Of a stretch of 30,838 bases of DNA, positions 19,858 to 29,376 are shown piece by piece. Where the stretch lies: the IMG/VR virus record IMGVR_UViG_2917413769_000005; one strand, written 5' to 3'. The position numbers and the translations under genes were made by a program. This DNA is from a virus (lineage: Duplodnaviria > Heunggongvirae > Uroviricota > Caudoviricetes). Under the pieces are notes generated by a model. That model was given only the letters and a program-made list of their open reading frames with translations, was not told the origin of the DNA and made no database searches. Every line of letters starts with the position of its first letter. The stretch's first letter is position 1.

Positions 19858-20915
19858 TGAAGAAGCGCACCTACAAAAACAAACACACCGCCAGCAGTGG
19901 CAGTGCCGGACAGCCTGATATCTCTGACGCGCTCAGAAGCGATCCGGCGCTCAGCGCCTTCACGTTTGACGGGCCATATTCGGTAACAGACGGCTATGAT
20001 CTGCTGGACAGCATGTGCTGCGTCGATAACGGCCGGTACTACGAGACGCCAATAGACTGGAAGGGGTTAACCCGTGCGTTCGCACAGTCCCCACTGCATC
20101 AGTCGGCGCTTTACTTCAAACGCAATGTGCTGACCGGGTGCTATATCCCTCATCCGTTACTCTCGCGGCAGGCCTTCTCTGCGTTTGCGCTGGACTGGTT
20201 TGTCTTCGGCAATGCCTATCTTGAGCGTCGGTCTAATCGCCTGGGAGAGCCGCTAAAACTTAAGCATGTTCCGGCGCTGAACACGCGACGGGGAAGCGAT
20301 CTTGATACCTACTGGTTTATCCGGCAGTGGAAAGATGAATATGAGTTCAAGGCGGGCGAGGTCTGCCACATCATGAACCCGGACATTCATCAGGAAATCT
20401 ACGGTATGCCGGAATACATGGGGGCGCTTCTGTCCGCCAGCCTGTCACATTCCGCCGATAAATTCCGCAAACTCTATTACGACAACGGCTCCCATGCCGG
20501 ATGCATTCTCTATGTCGGTTCGGAGAAGGTGGATCAGGAAAGCATAAAGGTGGTGCAAAAAACGCTGTCACAGGCCAGAGGGAAAGGCTCCTTCAAAAAC
20601 GTGCTGATCCACGCGCCGGGTGGCGGCAAAGACGGCGTGCAACTGTTGCCGTTCAGCCAGATATCGGCAAAGGATGAGTTTCTTAACATCAAATCAGCAA
20701 CGCGCAACGATTTGCGCGACGCTCACCGCATCCCGCCGCAACTGATGGGCGCAATGCCGGAAGGCAACGGATCGCTCGGTGATGTTGAGAAGGCTGCGCG
20801 TGTCTTCGCCATCAACGAAATGTTGCCCGTGATGGAAGCAATGAAGGGCGTCAATGACTGGCTCGGTCAGGAAGTGATCCGCTTTAATCCCTACGCTCTA
20901 CTCAAAGACGAGTGA
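19857..20915 (+). CDS. Q: portal protein Q
   Basis: 352 aa P2 gpQ-like portal. Confidence 0.9.
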   Translation: MKKRTYKNKHTASSGSAGQPDISDALRSDPALSAFTFDGPYSVTDGYDLLDSMCCVDNGRYYETPIDWKGLTRAFAQSPLHQSALYFKRNVLTGCYIPHPLLSRQAFSAFALDWFVFGNAYLERRSNRLGEPLKLKHVPALNTRRGSDLDTYWFIRQWKDEYEFKAGEVCHIMNPDIHQEIYGMPEYMGALLSASLSHSADKFRKLYYDNGSHAGCILYVGSEKVDQESIKVVQKTLSQARGKGSFKNVLIHAPGGGKDGVQLLPFSQISAKDEFLNIKSATRNDLRDAHRIPPQLMGAMPEGNGSLGDVEKAARVFAINEMLPVMEAMKGVNDWLGQEVIRFNPYALLKDE

Positions 20916-20925
20916 CCCGCCCCAC

Positions 20926-20960
20926 CCGCCGCACATCCTGCGGCGGTTCTCCTTCAGTTA
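20926..20960 (+). terminator. rho-independent terminator after Q
   Basis: Perfect hairpin CCGCCGCA-CATCC-TGCGGCGG at 20926-20946 followed by T-rich TTCTCCTTCAGTTATTTTC. Confidence 0.6.
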
Positions 20961-21282
20961 TTTTCAATTCCCGTATGACCGGCCACCACCTGAGCACCAC
21001 TCAGCACAACCTTAACCCCCCTCACTCAGAGCGCATTAGCGCCACTCTGGCAGGCGCAATCTGCATTTTACCCCGAACACATCCAGAAGTGAGAAAAACG
21101 CGCGGAGAAGGCGAAAAAGGCCGGAGAATGGCAATTAAAGGCATCACCTCCCGACCCTCCGTCGCGTGGGCTGTTCCCCCGTCACCTGCGCGCGACATTT
21201 GCTTCGTTTTTTGTGCATTTCCCGATCTGGGGGCAGACCGCGCCACCACAGGGCGGAAAGGTCATAAACAGCATCAAAAAAA

Positions 21283-21309
21283 TTGTGCAAATTTGTGCAC
21301 TATTGTGCG
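21283..21309. repeat. three TTGTGC(A/G) direct repeats at 10-bp phasing (plus a fourth TTGTGCA at 21211), inside the probable cos/packaging region
   Basis: TTGTGCA at 21283 and 21293, TTGTGCG at 21303; non-coding stretch between the convergent ends of Q and doc. Confidence 0.4.
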
Positions 21310-21366
21310 ACAGAGAAAGAAGGCCCGGAGGGAAGAAAAGCCGCCTTTAAAAGACAGCTTCTCATG

Positions 21367-21750
21367 TCAGTGGGGATTGATGGATAGTCGGCGCAAAACA
21401 GCAGCAACATCGCCACTGCTTAATGAACCCGTCGCTGCGGATACGGTCAGTTCTTCCAGTTCATTACCTTCATCACGGATATCAATACCATTGCGCTTTA
21501 AAAAAGCCATCGCAACGAAAAAGGCGGTTCGCTTATTGCCGTCATTGAAGATATGACCACGCGAAATGGCGACGAGATACATCGCAGCGAGTTCGTGAAT
21601 ATCCTCAACGCCTTCATAGTAAAGCTGGTTCTGAACACGATAAATGATCGCCTCTGCTCTTCCCGGTTCTGGCATCCCCTGAACGCCGGGCAAAGCTGCA
21701 AGCAGACGATCATGAAACGCTATCACCTCCTGAGCGCTGATCCATTTCAT
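21367..21750 (-). CDS. doc: Doc toxin (Fic-fold)
   Basis: Strong resemblance to P1 Doc including HIFNDGNKRTA Fic-type motif and PGRAEAIIYRVQ; ATG overlaps the phd stop. Confidence 0.85.
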   Translation of the reverse strand: MKWISAQEVIAFHDRLLAALPGVQGMPEPGRAEAIIYRVQNQLYYEGVEDIHELAAMYLVAISRGHIFNDGNKRTAFFVAMAFLKRNGIDIRDEGNELEELTVSAATGSLSSGDVAAVLRRLSINPH

Positions 21751-21968
21751 CTGTCAGCCAGCGCCTTAATGGTACGACCGTGTCGCCCCATAATTTCAGC
21801 AAATTCAGCATCCAGTTTTGCTTCCTGCCACGCATTGAAATCATCCCGGCTGATAAGCACAGCGGCAGAGCCATCGCGGCGGGTAATTTCTACAGGCTCG
21901 CCAGCCGTAGCCGCCTCCATTACCTCAGCAATATTTTGCCGGGCCTGAGATGTGGTATAGGTTCGCAT
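21747..21968 (-). CDS. phd: Phd/YefM-family antitoxin
   Basis: MRTYTTSQARQNIAEVMEAATAGEPVEITRRDGSAAVLIS...AKLDAEFAEI resembles P1 Phd; strong RBS AAGGAGGT 5 nt before ATG 21968. Confidence 0.8.
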   Translation of the reverse strand: MRTYTTSQARQNIAEVMEAATAGEPVEITRRDGSAAVLISRDDFNAWQEAKLDAEFAEIMGRHGRTIKALADR

Positions 21969-22195: not shown

Positions 22196-22705
22196 TCAGA
22201 AAACTGGATTAATTTTGCGGTGGTAGAGCACTTCCCACAGAAGCGATATCAACTCTTCCTGCCTGATATCCACGGCTTCACTGGCGTCATATTTAGCCAT
22301 CAGCTCATTGATTCGCTCAACAGACAATGGCCCTGCGGAATTTACCGCTGATCGGGAAGATGGGAGACAGCTTTCTTCAGGCGGATGCTCTTCACGCCAT
22401 TTCTTTGCCGCCCTCTCATTCATCAACTGCCATTCGGGATATCGGTTAAATAGCTCACGCTCGGTACTGGTTCGCGCATCATGGCCTTCATCTGCCAGCC
22501 GCGCTGGTTCTGGCTCGCAGCTTTCAGACAAAGCAATATCGTCGGGAGCGTCAAACGGTTTTAACCCCTTGCAGGTGCAGCAAATGCGATCATTAAAATA
22601 ATACTTTTCCTTGTAGTGCAGCTCGTTACCACACTTACGGCATCGCTTAATTTTGTTACTGATGAAATCAATTACTTCCTGCTCTCGCTGTTCTTCGTCA
22701 AACAT
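22196..22705 (-). CDS. hypothetical zinc-ribbon protein
   Basis: Cys cluster CRKCGNELHYKEKYYFNDRICCTCKG; sits where P2 has orf91; 5' end overlaps the 3' end of A; start uncertain (22705 or 22747). Confidence 0.5.
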   Translation of the reverse strand: MFDEEQREQEVIDFISNKIKRCRKCGNELHYKEKYYFNDRICCTCKGLKPFDAPDDIALSESCEPEPARLADEGHDARTSTERELFNRYPEWQLMNERAAKKWREEHPPEESCLPSSRSAVNSAGPLSVERINELMAKYDASEAVDIRQEELISLLWEVLYHRKINPVF

Positions 22706-25281
22706 ACGCGCTGCCCCTGATTCCTGGTGCCAAACAACCTGTCCCACGCAGCCGGATCAGCTTTTTTCAACATTTCCGCATAGCTGCCAACGGGATCATG
22801 CCTGATATCTCTGCTGTCAACATTATGACTTAGCTTCATATGCTGCCACAAATCGGCAGTCTTACGGTCAGCTCCGTTATCTTTTCTGCGCCTCAGCTCT
22901 CCGCTGCTGGTTGCGGAGACAATAAAGCCATCAATTCGCAAACGCTCACCGCGTAGCAATAACGTTAACTGACCTGTGCTCAGTTCTATGCCTATAGATT
23001 TGGCAAAATCATCCAGTGCCGCAATGCGATCGACTGATACAGGAACTGGCCCGGTAACAGCAGGCATATCCCTTTCCTGCTGCCTCAATTCCTGAGCAAC
23101 TTTTAGATAGCTCTCGGCCCTGGCCTGCTCAATATCATCACAATCTGATGCCGTAATGGCATTAGCCAGCGCCTCAAACTCATCAGCAGGTGATTTTTGC
23201 CGTTCCGGTTTGTAGTTTCTGATGCTTTCGTTGAGCCTTTTTTTCTGCTCGTGGGTCATTTGACCAATTTCATACTGTTCAGGCTCAACTGGTGGCGAAT
23301 TTTCACCCTCTGAATTTGTATGTTTTTTGACCTCAGTACAGTTATTGACACGAGTCCTAGAGGGCGCGGACGCGCCCCGAAGGTCAAAATCAAAGTCAAC
23401 GGCCTGCCCGGAGTCGTCTAAAACTTCCGGTTTCTTACGCACAATGCGGTAGGTATGCAGGCGGGTTTCAATTGGTGGGATGTGAACGGCCGGCATCATC
23501 AGACCTTTGATAAGATCCAGATACTCGCCGTAATCATTTGGTTCGTCTTTCTGCTGGTACCAAATGCGCAACGGCAGATCACGGCGGGCAACCAACGCCC
23601 CGCCTTGCAATTGGGTGTATTGCTGCCAGTCGCCAGCATCCGCAGCACGGTGCAGCTCAGCAAATAGCGGGTTTATCTTGTCGGCCTGTTCCTGATTGCG
23701 GAACCGGCGCAGCTCACGCCAGACAGATACCGGCGCGCCGCCCAGAAACTGAAACTGACGGATGCCCCAGCAAGATGCCCAGGCGGTTGCATGTTTTGAA
23801 GTTTCTTTCAGCGGCCTGCCGCTCTCGTCGTCGGTTTCACCGTCGAGCGCGTAGCCGTCAATATTCTTACTGATGTACTTCACCACATAGCCGGTGGCGC
23901 TGCCGATTTCATGATCGATCGGCTTCATATCAAAACGCGGTTGGTTGCCGTGTTTGCCCTGCAACTCTTCCGCATCCTCGCGGGTTGCGTAGTCTTCCAT
24001 CACTTCCAGCAGCTCGGCAGAATGTTCCGGCAGGGAGAACAGCAGGCCGTGCCAGTGCGGCGTACCATCGTGATGAGACTCAGCCACCCGCAAACCAAAA
24101 ACAGGGATTTCACGGCGGGCCAGCTCAGCGCGGATCTGTTGCCATACCCGGTTAAGATAACGCTGCGTGGCTCTTGGGCTGGCACCGTTCCATTTGGCAT
24201 TACGATGACCGAATACGGTATATGCGTGGTATTTGGATGGCGCTGTCAGGGTAAAAAACTGTCCCGCGTATCCGCTTTCGGTGGCGACTTTCTCAAAACC
24301 ACCAATGCGGGTCATGAGTTCAACGCGGCGTAATGCTGGATTAGAAATGCTCTTATCGATCTGCTCAATAAGCGAAATACGCTCTTTGGTGTCCTGGTCT
24401 TCCAGCTCAAGGCGAGCCATGATCGCGCGGCTGCGTTTGCGCCTGGCATCCCACTCATCAACGTGGTGCTTACTGCAATAAGGCGCAGCGCCCCGCTTCA
24501 CATCACCAAAGGCGATATGCAGGTGCTCACGCCAGCGCGCCGCGTACTTTTTCAGGTTACGATGCCAATAGCGATCATCCAGCATCTTACTGATGCCAGT
24601 AGTAGCCTCATCAATAAACAGCGTTCCCCGGCAATACTTTGCCCAGCTCGGAGGCGTCAGGAAGAAAAGCCGCGCGAGGATAGCCGCTTCGGTGTAAAGG
24701 TATCCGGCATATTTGCGATCACTCTGAGTCTCTACCGTTTCGTGAACTTCGCTCAGCACAGACCGCATATAGATAGCAATATCCTGCGCCAGCAGCTCAA
24801 CATCTTCCGGCGTGAAATCCGGCAGGCGGTTAAAGCGCTCAACCAATCCGTGAAGAGTGTGAAACGTGTGGTAAAGCGGGTTTACCCCTTTGAATGCTGT
24901 ATCAGCCTGAGATTTAGCCTCATCGGTCACCGCAATAGCGTATTGCTCATTCACCATGTTGATGGGCGGGAGATCCCTGCGAATAATATCGCGTAGCGCC
25001 AGACGGGCGATGTGCCTGCCCTTCATGGTGTGAATGCTGTCAATACGGGAAGCCAGACGCAGGCGAATAAAGCGAGGTAGCGGCGCAAGGGTAACTTTCA
25101 CCCACGCCAAAAACTCCTGTTCTTGACCCAGCTCGACTAGATCAACAACGGGAGTCTTATCAACACAAATGGCAGCTTTCGGCTTCTGCCATTCGTAAGC
25201 GTACCGGGTGGCGTCTGGTGCGCTACCCGGATACGGAGGGGGCGGCGTTGGAGCGCCACGCCCACTGGCTGCGGTGGTCAT
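22672..25281 (-). CDS. A: replication initiation endonuclease A (rolling-circle HUH type)
   Basis: 869 aa; HUH-like motif ESHHDGTPHWHGLLF and Tyr region GYVVKYISKNIDGY as in P2 gpA; position upstream of the cos-proximal accessory slot. Confidence 0.85.
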   Translation of the reverse strand: MTTAASGRGAPTPPPPYPGSAPDATRYAYEWQKPKAAICVDKTPVVDLVELGQEQEFLAWVKVTLAPLPRFIRLRLASRIDSIHTMKGRHIARLALRDIIRRDLPPINMVNEQYAIAVTDEAKSQADTAFKGVNPLYHTFHTLHGLVERFNRLPDFTPEDVELLAQDIAIYMRSVLSEVHETVETQSDRKYAGYLYTEAAILARLFFLTPPSWAKYCRGTLFIDEATTGISKMLDDRYWHRNLKKYAARWREHLHIAFGDVKRGAAPYCSKHHVDEWDARRKRSRAIMARLELEDQDTKERISLIEQIDKSISNPALRRVELMTRIGGFEKVATESGYAGQFFTLTAPSKYHAYTVFGHRNAKWNGASPRATQRYLNRVWQQIRAELARREIPVFGLRVAESHHDGTPHWHGLLFSLPEHSAELLEVMEDYATREDAEELQGKHGNQPRFDMKPIDHEIGSATGYVVKYISKNIDGYALDGETDDESGRPLKETSKHATAWASCWGIRQFQFLGGAPVSVWRELRRFRNQEQADKINPLFAELHRAADAGDWQQYTQLQGGALVARRDLPLRIWYQQKDEPNDYGEYLDLIKGLMMPAVHIPPIETRLHTYRIVRKKPEVLDDSGQAVDFDFDLRGASAPSRTRVNNCTEVKKHTNSEGENSPPVEPEQYEIGQMTHEQKKRLNESIRNYKPERQKSPADEFEALANAITASDCDDIEQARAESYLKVAQELRQQERDMPAVTGPVPVSVDRIAALDDFAKSIGIELSTGQLTLLLRGERLRIDGFIVSATSSGELRRRKDNGADRKTADLWQHMKLSHNVDSRDIRHDPVGSYAEMLKKADPAAWDRLFGTRNQGQRVCLTKNSESRK

Positions 25282-26297
25282 TTCACCGCATCCATGTAAG
25301 CACTTATGAAGGTTGCTGCGACTTCCGCGCAGATGGCATTTCCGTAGGCGCGCAACTGGCCCACTCTTCCGGCAACCCCATTAACCAGCGGCTTAAGTCC
25401 TGGTTTAACTGGCCTCCACTTTCCATCATGGCAGAAGAGCCAGTCAGCATCTTGCCAGAAGCCGTTAACCTGATGGGGCCAATCATTTTTGATTGCTGGG
25501 TCAGACTGCTGCCCGTCATCGCCGGAGTGATCCCCCTCCCGCCCCTGGTTCCGTCCGATGCACTCGGAGTTGTCCAACCGGATAACTGTGCTGTCACATC
25601 CAGCCGATCCGTTGACAGCTTCCCGTTGCGAATCCTCCCTCCCTGATACCCCCCTTTCCCATCCGTTGCTGTTGGAGTATTCCACCCCGCTAGGCAGGCA
25701 AAATCTTGCAGATTCGACTGCCTGCCCGCCATCATTCTGGCTATAACTTTCAATGGATCCTGATACGCGTTTTTGACGTTGCTCGCGTTCGGAGTGGGCC
25801 ACCCAGAAGAGGCGCTGTCTTATATGCGGGGCACCGAAGCCCGCAGCGCAAAGATCGAGAGCTGTTGCGGCGTAGCCCGTTCCTTCCAAGTCAGTCTGTA
25901 CAATGTCGAACCAACCGAGGCCGTCCTTGCTTGCAACCTGCTCACCAAAGACAGTCTCAGGGCGGCACTGCTCAATGAGATAGTGGAAATGGGGCCAAAG
26001 GTGCCGCTCGTCAGTAACCCCTGCTCTTTTGCCTGACTGGCTGAAAGGTTGGCACGGGCAAGAGCCTGTCCAGATAGGGCGATCGTCCGCCCATCCAGCC
26101 CGGCGCAGGGCGTAAGACCAGACGCCGATCCCTGCAAAGAAATGGCATTGAGTGAATCCGTTAAGGTCATTTGGTGTTACTTCCTCAATAGAACGGGTGT
26201 CAACAACGCCCGGCGCTATGTGCCCAGCGTCAATAAGATTGCGCAGCCATTGAGCCGCAAAGGGATCGATCTCGTTGTAATAAGCCGTCACAATCAC
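25278..26297 (-). CDS. C5-cytosine DNA methyltransferase (frame integrity uncertain)
   Basis: Frame A carries FFAGIGVW (motif I-like), GSCPCQPFS (PCQ), FGEQV (ENV-like), APHIRQRLFWV (motif VIII-like) and C-terminal LRAYGNAICAEVA (motif X-like); GTG start overlaps the Dam stop; middle part is low complexity. Confidence 0.6.
   Translation of the reverse strand: MIVTAYYNEIDPFAAQWLRNLIDAGHIAPGVVDTRSIEEVTPNDLNGFTQCHFFAGIGVWSYALRRAGWADDRPIWTGSCPCQPFSQSGKRAGVTDERHLWPHFHYLIEQCRPETVFGEQVASKDGLGWFDIVQTDLEGTGYAATALDLCAAGFGAPHIRQRLFWVAHSEREQRQKRVSGSIESYSQNDGGQAVESARFCLPSGVEYSNSNGWERGVSGREDSQREAVNGSAGCDSTVIRLDNSECIGRNQGREGDHSGDDGQQSDPAIKNDWPHQVNGFWQDADWLFCHDGKWRPVKPGLKPLVNGVAGRVGQLRAYGNAICAEVAATFISAYMDAVK
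25307..25819 (-). other. alternate-frame open segment inside the C5 methyltransferase gene, with G-W-x-T-P-x-A-x-D repeats and a motif IX-like RWLMGLPEEW
   Basis: Frame open from the TAA at 25820-25822 to the stop at 25304-25306; three repeats (GWPTPNASN, GWNTPTATD, GWTTPSASD) differ mainly at this frame's synonymous positions. Confidence 0.4.
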
Positions 26298-27184
26298 GCC
26301 CCCTCAGCACACTGCCCGCAGCTCTCACAGTTCCCGCAACCACCTGCCGGGCATCCCTCAACGATGCCCAAAGTGCCGATCACCTCTTTGGCCTTCTGGC
26401 GGTTGCTGGCGTCAGTGCTAACAGAGCGCTGCACGTCGATTTCATGCAGGCGGAAACGGTGGTAAATCTCGCGGGTGGTTTCGGTGTCACTGTTGGAAAT
26501 GACAACCGGCGCGCCATATTTGCGGTTCACTTCCAGCAGCTCCGCCGCTAACTGGCGGTGGTGCTTCTCGGTGAATGGCTCGGTGTGGTATTGGGTGAAA
26601 TTGGCGGTTTCGCTGGCAGGCAGGTACGGGGGATCGCAGTAGATGGCTTCATCCGTTCCAACCATCACTTTGAGGGTGTTTTGAAACGAGCTGCACAGAA
26701 AAATAGCTTTGGTGTCGTTGGCCTTCTCAGCAAACTGGCGGATCTCCGCCTCCGGGAAGTAAGGCGCGCTTTTGTGCTGACCAAACGGGACGTTATAACC
26801 ACCGCTCTGGTTGTAACGCACCACGCCGTTGTAGCCGTGGCGGTTGAGGTACAGAAACAGAGCCGCGCGGGCCACATCAAGCAAGCCTTTTGTACCGTTG
26901 AAAATGCGGCGGTTCTGTAAGTATTCCTCTTTGGAATTGCCGGTCGCAAAGAGCGGGCGGGCAAGATCAATCACCAGCTCAGGATTGCTTTTTACCTCAC
27001 GATAAAGGCGGATCAGATCTGGGTTGATATCCGCAAGAATGTACCGGCGATAATCGGTATTGAGGAACACGGAAGCGCCGCCAACAAAAGGCTCAACGAG
27101 GCAACCAGCCTTTGGTAAATGCGGCAGTAATTCAGGCATCACGCGGCTTTTGCCACCGGGCCATTTGAGTAGAGATCGAATCAT
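26294..27184 (-). CDS. DNA adenine methyltransferase (Dam-like, D12 class)
   Basis: N-terminal KWPGGK and catalytic DPPY motifs; RBS AGGAGA 9 nt before ATG 27184; Cys-rich C-terminal tail. Confidence 0.85.
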   Translation of the reverse strand: MIRSLLKWPGGKSRVMPELLPHLPKAGCLVEPFVGGASVFLNTDYRRYILADINPDLIRLYREVKSNPELVIDLARPLFATGNSKEEYLQNRRIFNGTKGLLDVARAALFLYLNRHGYNGVVRYNQSGGYNVPFGQHKSAPYFPEAEIRQFAEKANDTKAIFLCSSFQNTLKVMVGTDEAIYCDPPYLPASETANFTQYHTEPFTEKHHRQLAAELLEVNRKYGAPVVISNSDTETTREIYHRFRLHEIDVQRSVSTDASNRQKAKEVIGTLGIVEGCPAGGCGNCESCGQCAEGA

Positions 27185-28428: not shown

Positions 28429-28656
28429 CTAAAGCAGTTTTCTAAATAATCTTGCTAAGGCACTAAATAAGCCTTTGTTTATCTTCTTCGTATAAACAAA
28501 AGGCTTACTCATACCTTTAATAAAGCGCACCTTATTTGGTTCCGGTTTAAAGAAACGCCCGTCCGGGCATTCAATCCAGCCGCGTGTATTGCGGTAATGC
28601 GTGACCTGGCAACCGTGCTTTAACAGGCTGGCAAGTGATGGGGCGTTATCGTTCAT
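28429..28656 (-). CDS. hypothetical protein
   Basis: 75-aa ORF; ATG 28656 directly after the stop of the upstream small ORF; AT-rich cargo-like DNA. Confidence 0.4.
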   Translation of the reverse strand: MNDNAPSLASLLKHGCQVTHYRNTRGWIECPDGRFFKPEPNKVRFIKGMSKPFVYTKKINKGLFSALARLFRKLL

Positions 28657-29094: not shown

Positions 29095-29376
29095 TCAAAG
29101 CCCAATCCACAGTAACCAGGCATCGCGCTGCTCTTTCGGACGATTGAAATAAGCGTCACGCATCGCACGGTTGAATTCAGGGATGTAGATCCAGTTCTCT
29201 GAGCGGTTCGTCAGAGACTCAGGATTCTTCATCTGAACCACCGGCAGCTTGCCGTCACGAACCATATCGCCAACCGCATTGGCGGTTTTACCGATCATTT
29301 CGGCAAATTTTGGGGCAGGCACCGCATCCACCGGATGGCGTAATTCAATGTAGCCCTCTGGGTATTTCTCTTTCAT
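29095..29376 (-). CDS. cox: Cox-like excisionase / early regulator
   Basis: C-terminal ...NWIYIPEFNRAMRDAYFNRPKEQRDAWLLWIGL resembles P2 Cox; divergent from C; RBS AAGGGGA. Confidence 0.75.
   Translation of the reverse strand: MKEKYPEGYIELRHPVDAVPAPKFAEMIGKTANAVGDMVRDGKLPVVQMKNPESLTNRSENWIYIPEFNRAMRDAYFNRPKEQRDAWLLWIGL

Follow-up and report, generated by a model that had tools for sequence, protein, structure and literature searches.

The window analysed here, by which we mean the whole stretch of 30,838 nucleotides (nt) in IMG/VR virus record IMGVR_UViG_2917413769_000005, is a P2-like prophage in which genes for a Dam-family adenine methyltransferase and a cytosine-5 (C5) methyltransferase are followed by replication gene A; all the genes discussed lie on the minus strand unless stated. 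The C5 gene wholly contains, on the same strand and in the +1 frame, a second open reading frame (ORF) that covers ~85% of the length of the gene and whose ATG lies ~130 nt into the annotated reading. We call the product of the annotated frame (frame 0) alpha and the product of the +1 frame beta. The features of this gene are as follows.

25278..26297, minus strand: C5-methyltransferase ORF (frame 0, alpha), 339 amino acids (aa); partial match to PF00145, match to phrog_363.
Within 25278..26297, minus strand: catalytic large domain of alpha, aa 1-172 (FFAGIG, PCQ, GEQV, RQRLF), from AlphaFold2 (AF2) and Foldseek.
25440..25781, minus strand: disordered "passenger" linker of alpha, aa 173-286, overlapping the +1 W-x-T-P modules; low conservation, predicted local distance difference test (pLDDT) score ~25.
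Within 25278..26297, minus strand: motif X helix of alpha (GNAI), aa 318-339, from AF2.
25304..26170, minus strand: embedded +1-frame ORF, beta-like chain, 288 codons, interrupted; seen by translation and open in homologues.
26168-26170, minus strand: ATG start of the +1 ORF, positionally conserved.
26182..26186, minus strand: Shine-Dalgarno (SD)-like GAGGA, 11 nt upstream of the +1 ATG, conserved in enterobacterial homologues.
N-terminal part of 25304..26170, minus strand: weakly constrained leader of beta, predicted to be disordered (alignment, AF2).
25835-25912, minus strand: conserved helix and hairpin of beta (GSTLYRLTWK...ALRAS), from the +1 translation.
25685-25801, 25577-25684 and 25478-25576, minus strand: three W-x-T-P modules, from the +1 translation.
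25361-25423, minus strand: C-terminal motif ESGGQLNxxLSRWLMGLPEEW, from the +1 translation.
25820..25822, minus strand: in-frame TAA at codon 117 of the +1 ORF, from comparison with Hafnia alvei.

Translation of the +1 frame gives a protein-like sequence (...GSTLYRLTWKERATP..ALRASVPRI*DSASSGWPTPNASN...GWNTPTATDGKGG...GWTTPSASDGTRGG...ESGGQLNQDLSRWLMGLPEEW...), and in SEN5, Erwinia phage 59 and eiAU this frame is open from a conserved ATG nearly to the end of the gene and encodes recognisably the same protein. We fetched 160 further loci and obtained 147 unique homologous C5 genes, which show 38-78% aa identity in frame 0 and come from Enterobacterales, Desulfovibrio, Sphingomonas, Chloroflexota, Acidobacteriota, Leptospiraceae and other taxa. 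The +1 frame of these 147 genes is open for a median of 299 codons, their +2 frame has many stops and a median open run of ~55 codons, and canonical C5 genes offer just 39-141 open +1 codons. GC content in the family ranges from 51 to 70%, and the members at 51-55% GC keep the +1 frame open too. An in-frame +1 ATG is present in all the genes that carry a GSTLY-type anchor (121/121), and in 110 of them the first such ATG precedes the anchor by 86-98 codons; the start context TTGAGGAAGTAAC(C/A)(G/C)CAAATG is kept in enterobacterial homologues, and an SD-like core occurs within 20 nt before the +1 ATG in 94/137 genes. Within the loci examined, beta was not seen apart from alpha.

Among canonical C5 genes, the group of Streptococcus phage P0095 (KY705255; locus L172, 352-771) has 141 open +1 codons, versus 39-86 in the others, and its gene P0095_50 contains an annotated +1 ORF of 139 aa, P0095_51, labelled DNA methyltransferase. 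Judged from the sequence, this ORF could be either a chance occurrence or a second instance of embedding.

To measure constraint on the two frames, we calculated the entropy of four-fold-degenerate third positions in frame 0, with the stretch before the +1 ATG serving as internal control. Third-position entropy stood at 1.67 bits ahead of the +1 ATG, dropped to ~0-0.6 bits at many sites within codons 107-167 and 292-317, and was 1.5-1.95 bits from codon 319 on. The low-entropy sites coincide exactly with the +1 motifs GSTLYxLTWK..ALRAS..GWPTP and ESGGQLNP..WLMGLP.EW, beneath which codons such as CTT (87/87), GTT (118/118) and CCT (130/136) hardly vary. Codon bias is not the explanation of this drop, because the sequences span the whole range of GC content given above. 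Over the linker region, column conservation is 0.18-0.40 in frame 0 versus 0.24-0.60 in the +1 frame, and frame 0 stays free of stops through its unconserved middle in 118/118 genes; shuffles of this middle that were synonymous in the +1 frame introduced a median of 2.3 frame-0 stops, with a median probability of no stop of 0.045. Shuffles synonymous in frame 0 gave a mean of 130 open +1 codons, and the observed length was reached by at least 1 of 200 shuffles in 48/137 genes; this is a weak null for +1 openness, because the overlap itself shapes the frame-0 protein, and it was replaced by third-position entropy and the reciprocal shuffle. Purifying selection acts on both frames in a very large family; since each frame stays open where only the other is conserved, the two products would, on the simplest view, both be required.

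An earlier note on this DNA, drawn up from the letters alone, had described the gene simply as a C5 methyltransferase gene. The catalytic part of that description stands, as frame 0 holds motif IV (SCPCQPFS), motif VI (ENV-like, FGEQV), motif VIII (HIRQRLFWVA) and motif X (YGNAICAEVA); what falls is the implication of a self-sufficient single chain, as alpha carries no target-recognition domain (TRD) or motif IX. PF00145 matches alpha (E=4.3e-14) only at residues 76-175, corresponding to profile positions 65-168 of 324, TIGR00675 scores 41 bits, under its cut-off of 100.65, and the matches of Pfam, TIGRFAM and every PADLOC methylase model end near residue 180; phrog_363 matches with E=1.3e-92. 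The AF2 model of window alpha reaches pLDDT 80-94 at residues 1-172, which form a Rossmann-type fold, and at residues 321-339, which form a helix, and the 114-residue middle (173-286) stays at ~25. Foldseek aligned this model to M.HhaI, M.HaeIII, DNMT1/2 and the methylase of prophage CP-933R with probability 1.0, over ~170 columns only, and no folded small domain (TRD plus motif IX) was found between motifs VIII and X by Pfam, AF2 or Foldseek. Because AF2 folds only those parts and Foldseek aligns only ~170 columns, alpha is, according to its model, a C5-methylase large domain plus motif X that lacks the small domain.

The order of motifs at the start of alpha is also atypical. Motif I is not the first, since a motif-II-like strand (NE(I)D/AYYNEID) stands at the N-terminus and FFAGIG (aa 53-58) comes after a VVD strand (positions 26124-26141 and 26270-26297, within frame-0 aa 1-60), which suggests that the N-terminal half of alpha may be permuted or rearranged relative to M.HhaI.

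The beta family has a common layout of leader, helix and hairpin, 1 to ~10 W-x-T-P modules and a conserved C-terminus. Clustering at 62% identity and 85% coverage separated at least 28 module types (single-linkage at looser thresholds merged all modules), whose number and order vary between members: the window reads BAD, SEN5 reads CDA, and BAF and BFA both occur. At 90% identity the family comprises 4818 clusters or more, every one labelled "hypothetical" and none with a Pfam domain, and among 50%-identity representatives beta has 19,893 matches at E<=1e-3 and 7,881 at E<=1e-30. Pfam and NCBIfam gave no match for the +1 pieces of the window or for intact +1 homologues; beta matches phrog_1008 and phrog_31772, which PHROGs labels "DNA methyltransferase". 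We also compared the beta profile by hhalign with M.HhaI (the sequence used is identical to 10mh_A; the homologues retrieved with it, all at least 71% identical, added little) and with a profile of 15 canonical C5 sequences. The first comparison gave one match, in which LNPahSRWLMGLPxeW aligns with HhaI 273-289, that is, motif IX, and the second gave the same motif IX match. By eye only, the module core T-P-(T/S)-A-x-D-x-K-G-G resembles the canonical element T-L-(S/T)-A-x-x-x-K-D-G.

Some members of the family are very long. Metagenome-assembled genomes of Desulfovibrio, Terriglobia, Hyphomicrobiales and Methylocystis (loci L157, L160, L161 and L162) have frame-0 ORFs of 458-659 codons, with the +1 frame open for 385-627 codons and up to 7 W-x-T-P modules; both frames are extended in them, and therefore dual coding scales with module number.

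A precedent for this arrangement exists in M.EcoHK31I, a two-polypeptide C5-methyltransferase specific for YGGCCR (Lee, Kam & Shaw 1995, as summarised in passages of PMC2836561 and PMC3404938). In those same passages (PMC2836561, PMC3404938) its beta chain is described as encoded entirely within the alpha gene in another frame, alpha as carrying motifs I-VIII, motif X and the TRD, beta as carrying motif IX, and activity as needing both. Compared by description and not by sequence, the window gene resembles it in that a second chain lies fully inside the methylase gene in another frame (as in the 147 homologues), in that the large chain has motifs I-VIII and also X but lacks IX, in that the small chain has motif IX (here a putative IX-like element, hhalign E=0.12-0.24) and an N-terminal part that is dispensable or flexible, and in the size of the large chain (~38 kDa, as suggested by the plasmid name pET3a-M38, against the 339 aa of alpha here). 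They differ in that M.EcoHK31I belongs to a restriction-modification system and has its TRD on alpha, whereas the window gene is a phage orphan, its embedded ORF takes up ~85% of the gene with 1 to ~10 shuffled W-x-T-P modules across the family, and the variable region of alpha is a disordered passenger. M.AquI is a natural heterodimeric C5 methylase of another kind, a linear split with motifs I-VIII and half of the variable region on one chain and the rest with motifs IX-X on the other (PMC3404938). It shares with the window gene a second chain that holds part of the variable region and motif IX, but it has no full-length embedding in another frame and its motif X is on beta.

Tandem, exchangeable target-recognising modules are a feature of the orphan, multispecific C5-methyltransferases of Bacillus phages SPR, phi3T and rho11s, each a single chain read in a single frame. 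The shuffled W-x-T-P modules resemble these arrays, by description only, and differ from them in that the SPR, phi3T and rho11s arrays are part of one polypeptide in one frame.

Taken with this precedent, the interval may consist of three genes, namely an orphan Dam-family methylase, the alpha chain of a C5 methylase and a +1 beta-like chain, the last two forming a two-chain C5 enzyme of the M.EcoHK31I kind, a proposal to which we give about even chances. Alpha would supply the large domain for binding of S-adenosylmethionine and catalysis (motifs I-VIII), and its long disordered tether would return the motif X helix to that domain. Beta, starting at its own ATG inside the alpha gene, would supply the parts that alpha lacks: the variable W-x-T-P-x-A-x-D-x-K-G-G modules as proposed target-recognition units, and the C-terminal L-N-P-x-x-S-R-W-L-M-G-L-P-x-E-W element as the proposed equivalent of motif IX. 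As has been demonstrated by experiment for M.EcoHK31I, the two chains would come together as an active enzyme. That enzyme would modify phage DNA by methylation at an early stage of infection or induction and so let it escape host restriction. Translation of beta, its assembly with alpha, a part for the modules in specificity and a part for the enzyme in anti-restriction are all proposed here, and the subunit model draws on anatomy and precedent rather than on demonstrated homology.

Several results weigh against this proposal. The alignment to motif IX falls short of significance (E=0.12-0.24, over 16-20 columns), PF00145 does not match beta, a chimera of alpha-N, beta and alpha-C does not extend the PF00145 match, and a profile of 58 +1 proteins found no match in the whole of PDB at E<=10. 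AF2 modelled a +1 protein poorly (mean pLDDT 55.7), and a Foldseek search with this model returned nothing below E=0.26. Some of the conservation that beta shows over alpha motifs IV-VIII follows simply from that of frame 0. Lastly, the TRD of M.EcoHK31I is assigned to alpha and not to beta in the summarising passages of PMC2836561 and PMC3404938. The locus is best classed as a well-supported dual-coding gene for which a functional link to an M.EcoHK31I-type enzyme is proposed and, should that link hold, as a very widespread M.EcoHK31I-like two-chain variant.

Among the other explanations, the one that survives best would make beta a selected, overprinted accessory protein (an anti-defence factor, a regulator or a DNA-binding protein) and no methylase subunit, with alpha working alone or with a host factor. 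We think this unlikely, yet serious. The signals of selection are silent on function, beta has no significant homology to any methylase domain, and we know of no counterpart in C5 methylases of its N-terminal helix and hairpin; overprinted accessory genes are, moreover, described as common in viruses (PMC8227390). It has to contend with the fact that alpha has no small domain or TRD and a disordered region in their place. A C5 methylase without them cannot recognise its target, as is clear from the structure and function of M.HhaI and M.HaeIII. Moreover, the only hhalign match of beta is to motif IX, the M.EcoHK31I precedent fits a subunit role, and beta was not seen without alpha in the loci examined.

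A second explanation would have programmed frameshifting produce one polypeptide, read in frame 0 to motif VIII, shifted by +1 into the W-x-T-P and IX-like region and shifted back by -1 to motif X. Its appeal is that the order along the DNA, with motifs I-VIII in frame 0, TRD-like and IX-like elements in +1 and motif X in frame 0 again, mimics the canonical order. It requires two opposite shifts, however. It also fails to account for a +1 frame whose constraint and openness set in ~60 codons upstream of motif VIII, or for the conserved ATG and SD that go with it; the maintenance of an open frame 0 throughout the middle would be superfluous under it, and the Pfam score does not improve with the frame-0/+1/frame-0 chimera. 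We consider it very improbable, and rejected it as the main mechanism on account of the two opposite shifts, the conserved ATG and SD and the openness of frame 0 throughout.

The weakest explanation, that these are two ordinary orphan methylase genes and that the +1 ORF has no function and simply results from composition and frame-0 conservation, can point to annotators, who nearly always call frame 0 only, and to the frame-0 shuffles (mean 130 open +1 codons, observed length matched in 48/137 genes), but it is strongly disfavoured by the sequences. Third-position entropy falls away beneath the +1 motifs and nowhere else, ~140 divergent genes keep the +1 frame open at GC contents down to 51%, the +1 protein is built of repeats whose copy number varies and whose module types are shuffled, its ATG is conserved in position, and the stretches conserved in the +1 frame are disordered and poorly conserved in frame 0. 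We give this explanation hardly any chance.

Returning to the proposed two-chain enzyme, the copy in this prophage has a peculiarity of its own. The TAA splits the +1 ORF into an N-terminal piece of 116 aa (25823-26170), which retains the hairpin, and a C-terminal piece (25304-25819), for which restarts are possible only at TTG 25753 or at the ATG ATG of 25730-25735 (25735/25732), with loss of part of module B. The closest relative of the gene is that of Hafnia alvei, with 87% aa identity in frame 0 and a virtually identical module region, where the sequence CAT ATC AGA stands against CAT ATA AGA in the window. The difference is a single C-to-A change, silent in frame 0 (Ile), that converts a +1 TCA (Ser) into TAA. 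The possibility that the TAA is shared by relatives was rejected, as Hafnia alvei reads ATC, and among the 147 homologues, frameshifted, truncated and contig-cut copies aside, the internal +1 stop is unique to the window. If beta is needed, its interruption would leave the C5 methylase of this prophage inactive or altered; we predict from the sequence that C5 activity is lost or altered unless the pieces of beta complement each other or the TAA is a base-call error, and the predicted C5 methylation may be absent here owing to this stop in the +1 gene, a reason that the earlier note had not considered.

The earlier note had singled out the tandem of two methylase classes as worth noting, which the wider sample does not bear out. 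In 51/163 fetched loci the C5 gene stands directly between a Dam homologue on its upstream side and a gene A homologue on its downstream side. The order methylase, methylase, gene A is found in SEN5, and Dam, small ORF, Dcm, replication endonuclease in SW3, and the Peduoviridae Salmonella phages SEN4/SEN5 and SW3/SI7 share with the window the order Dam, (small ORF), C5, gene A; the Dam/C5 tandem is ordinary. In SEN5 the C5 gene holds this +1 ORF too, uninterrupted and with modules CDA, where the window has the TAA and modules BAD. Both window methylases also match one family of fused adenine and cytosine methylases like Phage P1 Dmt, phrog_116 (779 positions), the C5 protein at positions 232-378 and Dam at 509-778, and the pairing of Dam and C5 is therefore a recurrent phage solution; the window genes differ from this fusion in being separate, translationally coupled and in the opposite order along the DNA. 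The C5 unit occurs without Dam as well, in a Hafnia lambdoid prophage (the closest relative), in the nin region of Erwinia phage 59 and, beside a helicase, in eiAU and K1ind2.

In two GenBank records both frames carry an annotation. Escherichia phage K1ind2 (GU196280; locus L177, 529-1326) has ORF29, "C-specific methylase", and ORF28, "putative Mte8-like protein", and in Xanthomonas phage PhiXhv-28 both frames are labelled "DNA methyltransferase". The "Mte8-like" label recurs with no functional comment in a K1-phage paper of 2017 (PMC5582158). By tblastn, the +1 protein lies beneath an annotated methylase in 204 phage records, gene 58 of N15 included. Megablast of the interval against phages returned only one fragment, of 78% identity, from a Bordetella phage, and no close annotated relative there. 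Our search of the literature, which left most subscription journals outside its reach and is weak to that extent, found no account of conserved dual coding or of a function for the +1 protein.

The neighbouring genes in this interval are two.

26294..27184, minus strand: Dam-family (D12 class) N6-adenine DNA methyltransferase, 296 aa; PF02086, TIGR00571, PADLOC oMTase.
22672..25281, minus strand: replication gene A, 869 aa; PF05840, E=2.9e-100.

What the earlier note had read at the level of motifs and junctions is borne out in the sequence: the C5 ORF itself, KWPGGK (27149-27166, aa 7-12) and DPPY (26624-26635, aa 184-187) in the Dam ORF, the GTGA (26294-26297) common to the Dam stop and the C5 GTG, and the ATGA (25278-25281) common to the C5 stop and the gene A ATG. 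Since homologues start MTAYYNEID, C5 translation may in fact begin at a second GTG, 26289-26291, in which case the gene would start 2 nt past the Dam stop, with no overlap. PF02086 matches Dam over residues 8-254 and profile positions 1-252 of 253 (E=4.7e-64; 217 bits, cut-off 22), and TIGR00571 "dam" scores 267.9 bits (cut-off 114.85). The E. coli Dam equivalog model NF008152 gives 289 bits, under its cut-off of 441, and the window Dam is therefore a family member and not a Dam orthologue. Its top PADLOC model is "orphan methyltransferase" (oMTase, E=3.8e-96).

Beyond the PF02086 domain, Dam ends in a Cys-rich tail, GCPAGGCGNCESCGQC (26309-26356, aa 277-292), and many Dam homologues in P2-like loci have related, variable tails, such as G(H/Y)CPDCGPCAGYSAGCG and GGGCPDCGAV. 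Judging by its residues, this tail may be a small metal-binding knuckle. In gene A, the Phage_GPA domain occupies only aa 160-477, after a Pro-rich N-terminus (GAPTPPPPYPGSAP), and the ~390 C-terminal residues have no Pfam match.

The note's suggestion of one early operon also finds support. After a promoter-like site upstream of cox, the early block runs cox (29095-29376), DUF4761, fil (28429-28656), two ORFs of unknown function, dam, C5 and A, with a helix-turn-helix repressor-like gene and the integrase on the opposite strand; the rest of the window holds P2-type structural genes (sheath, tape measure, fibre, baseplate, capsid, terminase, portal). As the block is co-directional, has a promoter-like site before cox and shows no convincing terminator between cox and A, it is a reasonable inference that Dam, C5 and gene A belong to a single early operon. 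The note's view that the methylases are orphans, with no endonuclease-like ORF adjacent, agrees with our searches too: the neighbours have no endonuclease or defence match in Pfam or PADLOC, and no restriction or defence protein was recognised by these two either beside the methylases or in the cargo between portal and gene A, where the ORFs 20912-21556 and 21553-21948 match nothing and might conceivably encode a novel nuclease. For the predicted methylases, the anti-restriction or epigenetic role that the note had in mind is plausible.

That cargo region (20912-21948), between the portal gene and gene A, is the usual accessory and defence hotspot of P2. A Fic/Doc-family ORF (21367-21750, minus strand; PF02661, E=1.9e-11) overlaps there in antisense with the plus-strand ORFs 20912-21556 and 21553-21948, and only one of the two sets can be real.

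For this prophage, the C5 methylase is possibly dead through a mutation that is invisible in the annotated frame. For the family, the sequences lead us to a broader idea, possible though doubtful: the "orphan Dcm-like" methylases of phages and prophages, of the N15 gp58, epsilon15-like, SEN5, K1ind and BcepC6B types and with ~20,000 clusters at 50% identity for the +1 protein, would be obligate two-chain enzymes made from a nearly fully dual-coding gene, their specificity set by the shuffled W-x-T-P array on the +1 chain. If true, the anti-restriction methylase of these phages would be modular and possibly multispecific, "DNA cytosine methyltransferase" annotations in their thousands would describe half an enzyme, and an equally large family of "hypothetical proteins" with no Pfam domain would gain a function. 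Predicting phage methylation and restriction evasion, as phage therapy and the host range of plasmids and phages call for, would then require the second frame, and the module array would be a natural system in which to study, and perhaps to engineer, C5-methylase specificity. Few of the same-strand overlaps known between genes of double-stranded DNA phages would match this one in length and spread. It would be a clean, ancient example of long dual coding on one strand, open to study by bioinformatics, where each frame would turn the conserved domain of the other into a disordered leader or linker of its own, and it would bear on the debate over how frequent long overlapping genes are in prokaryotic genomes.

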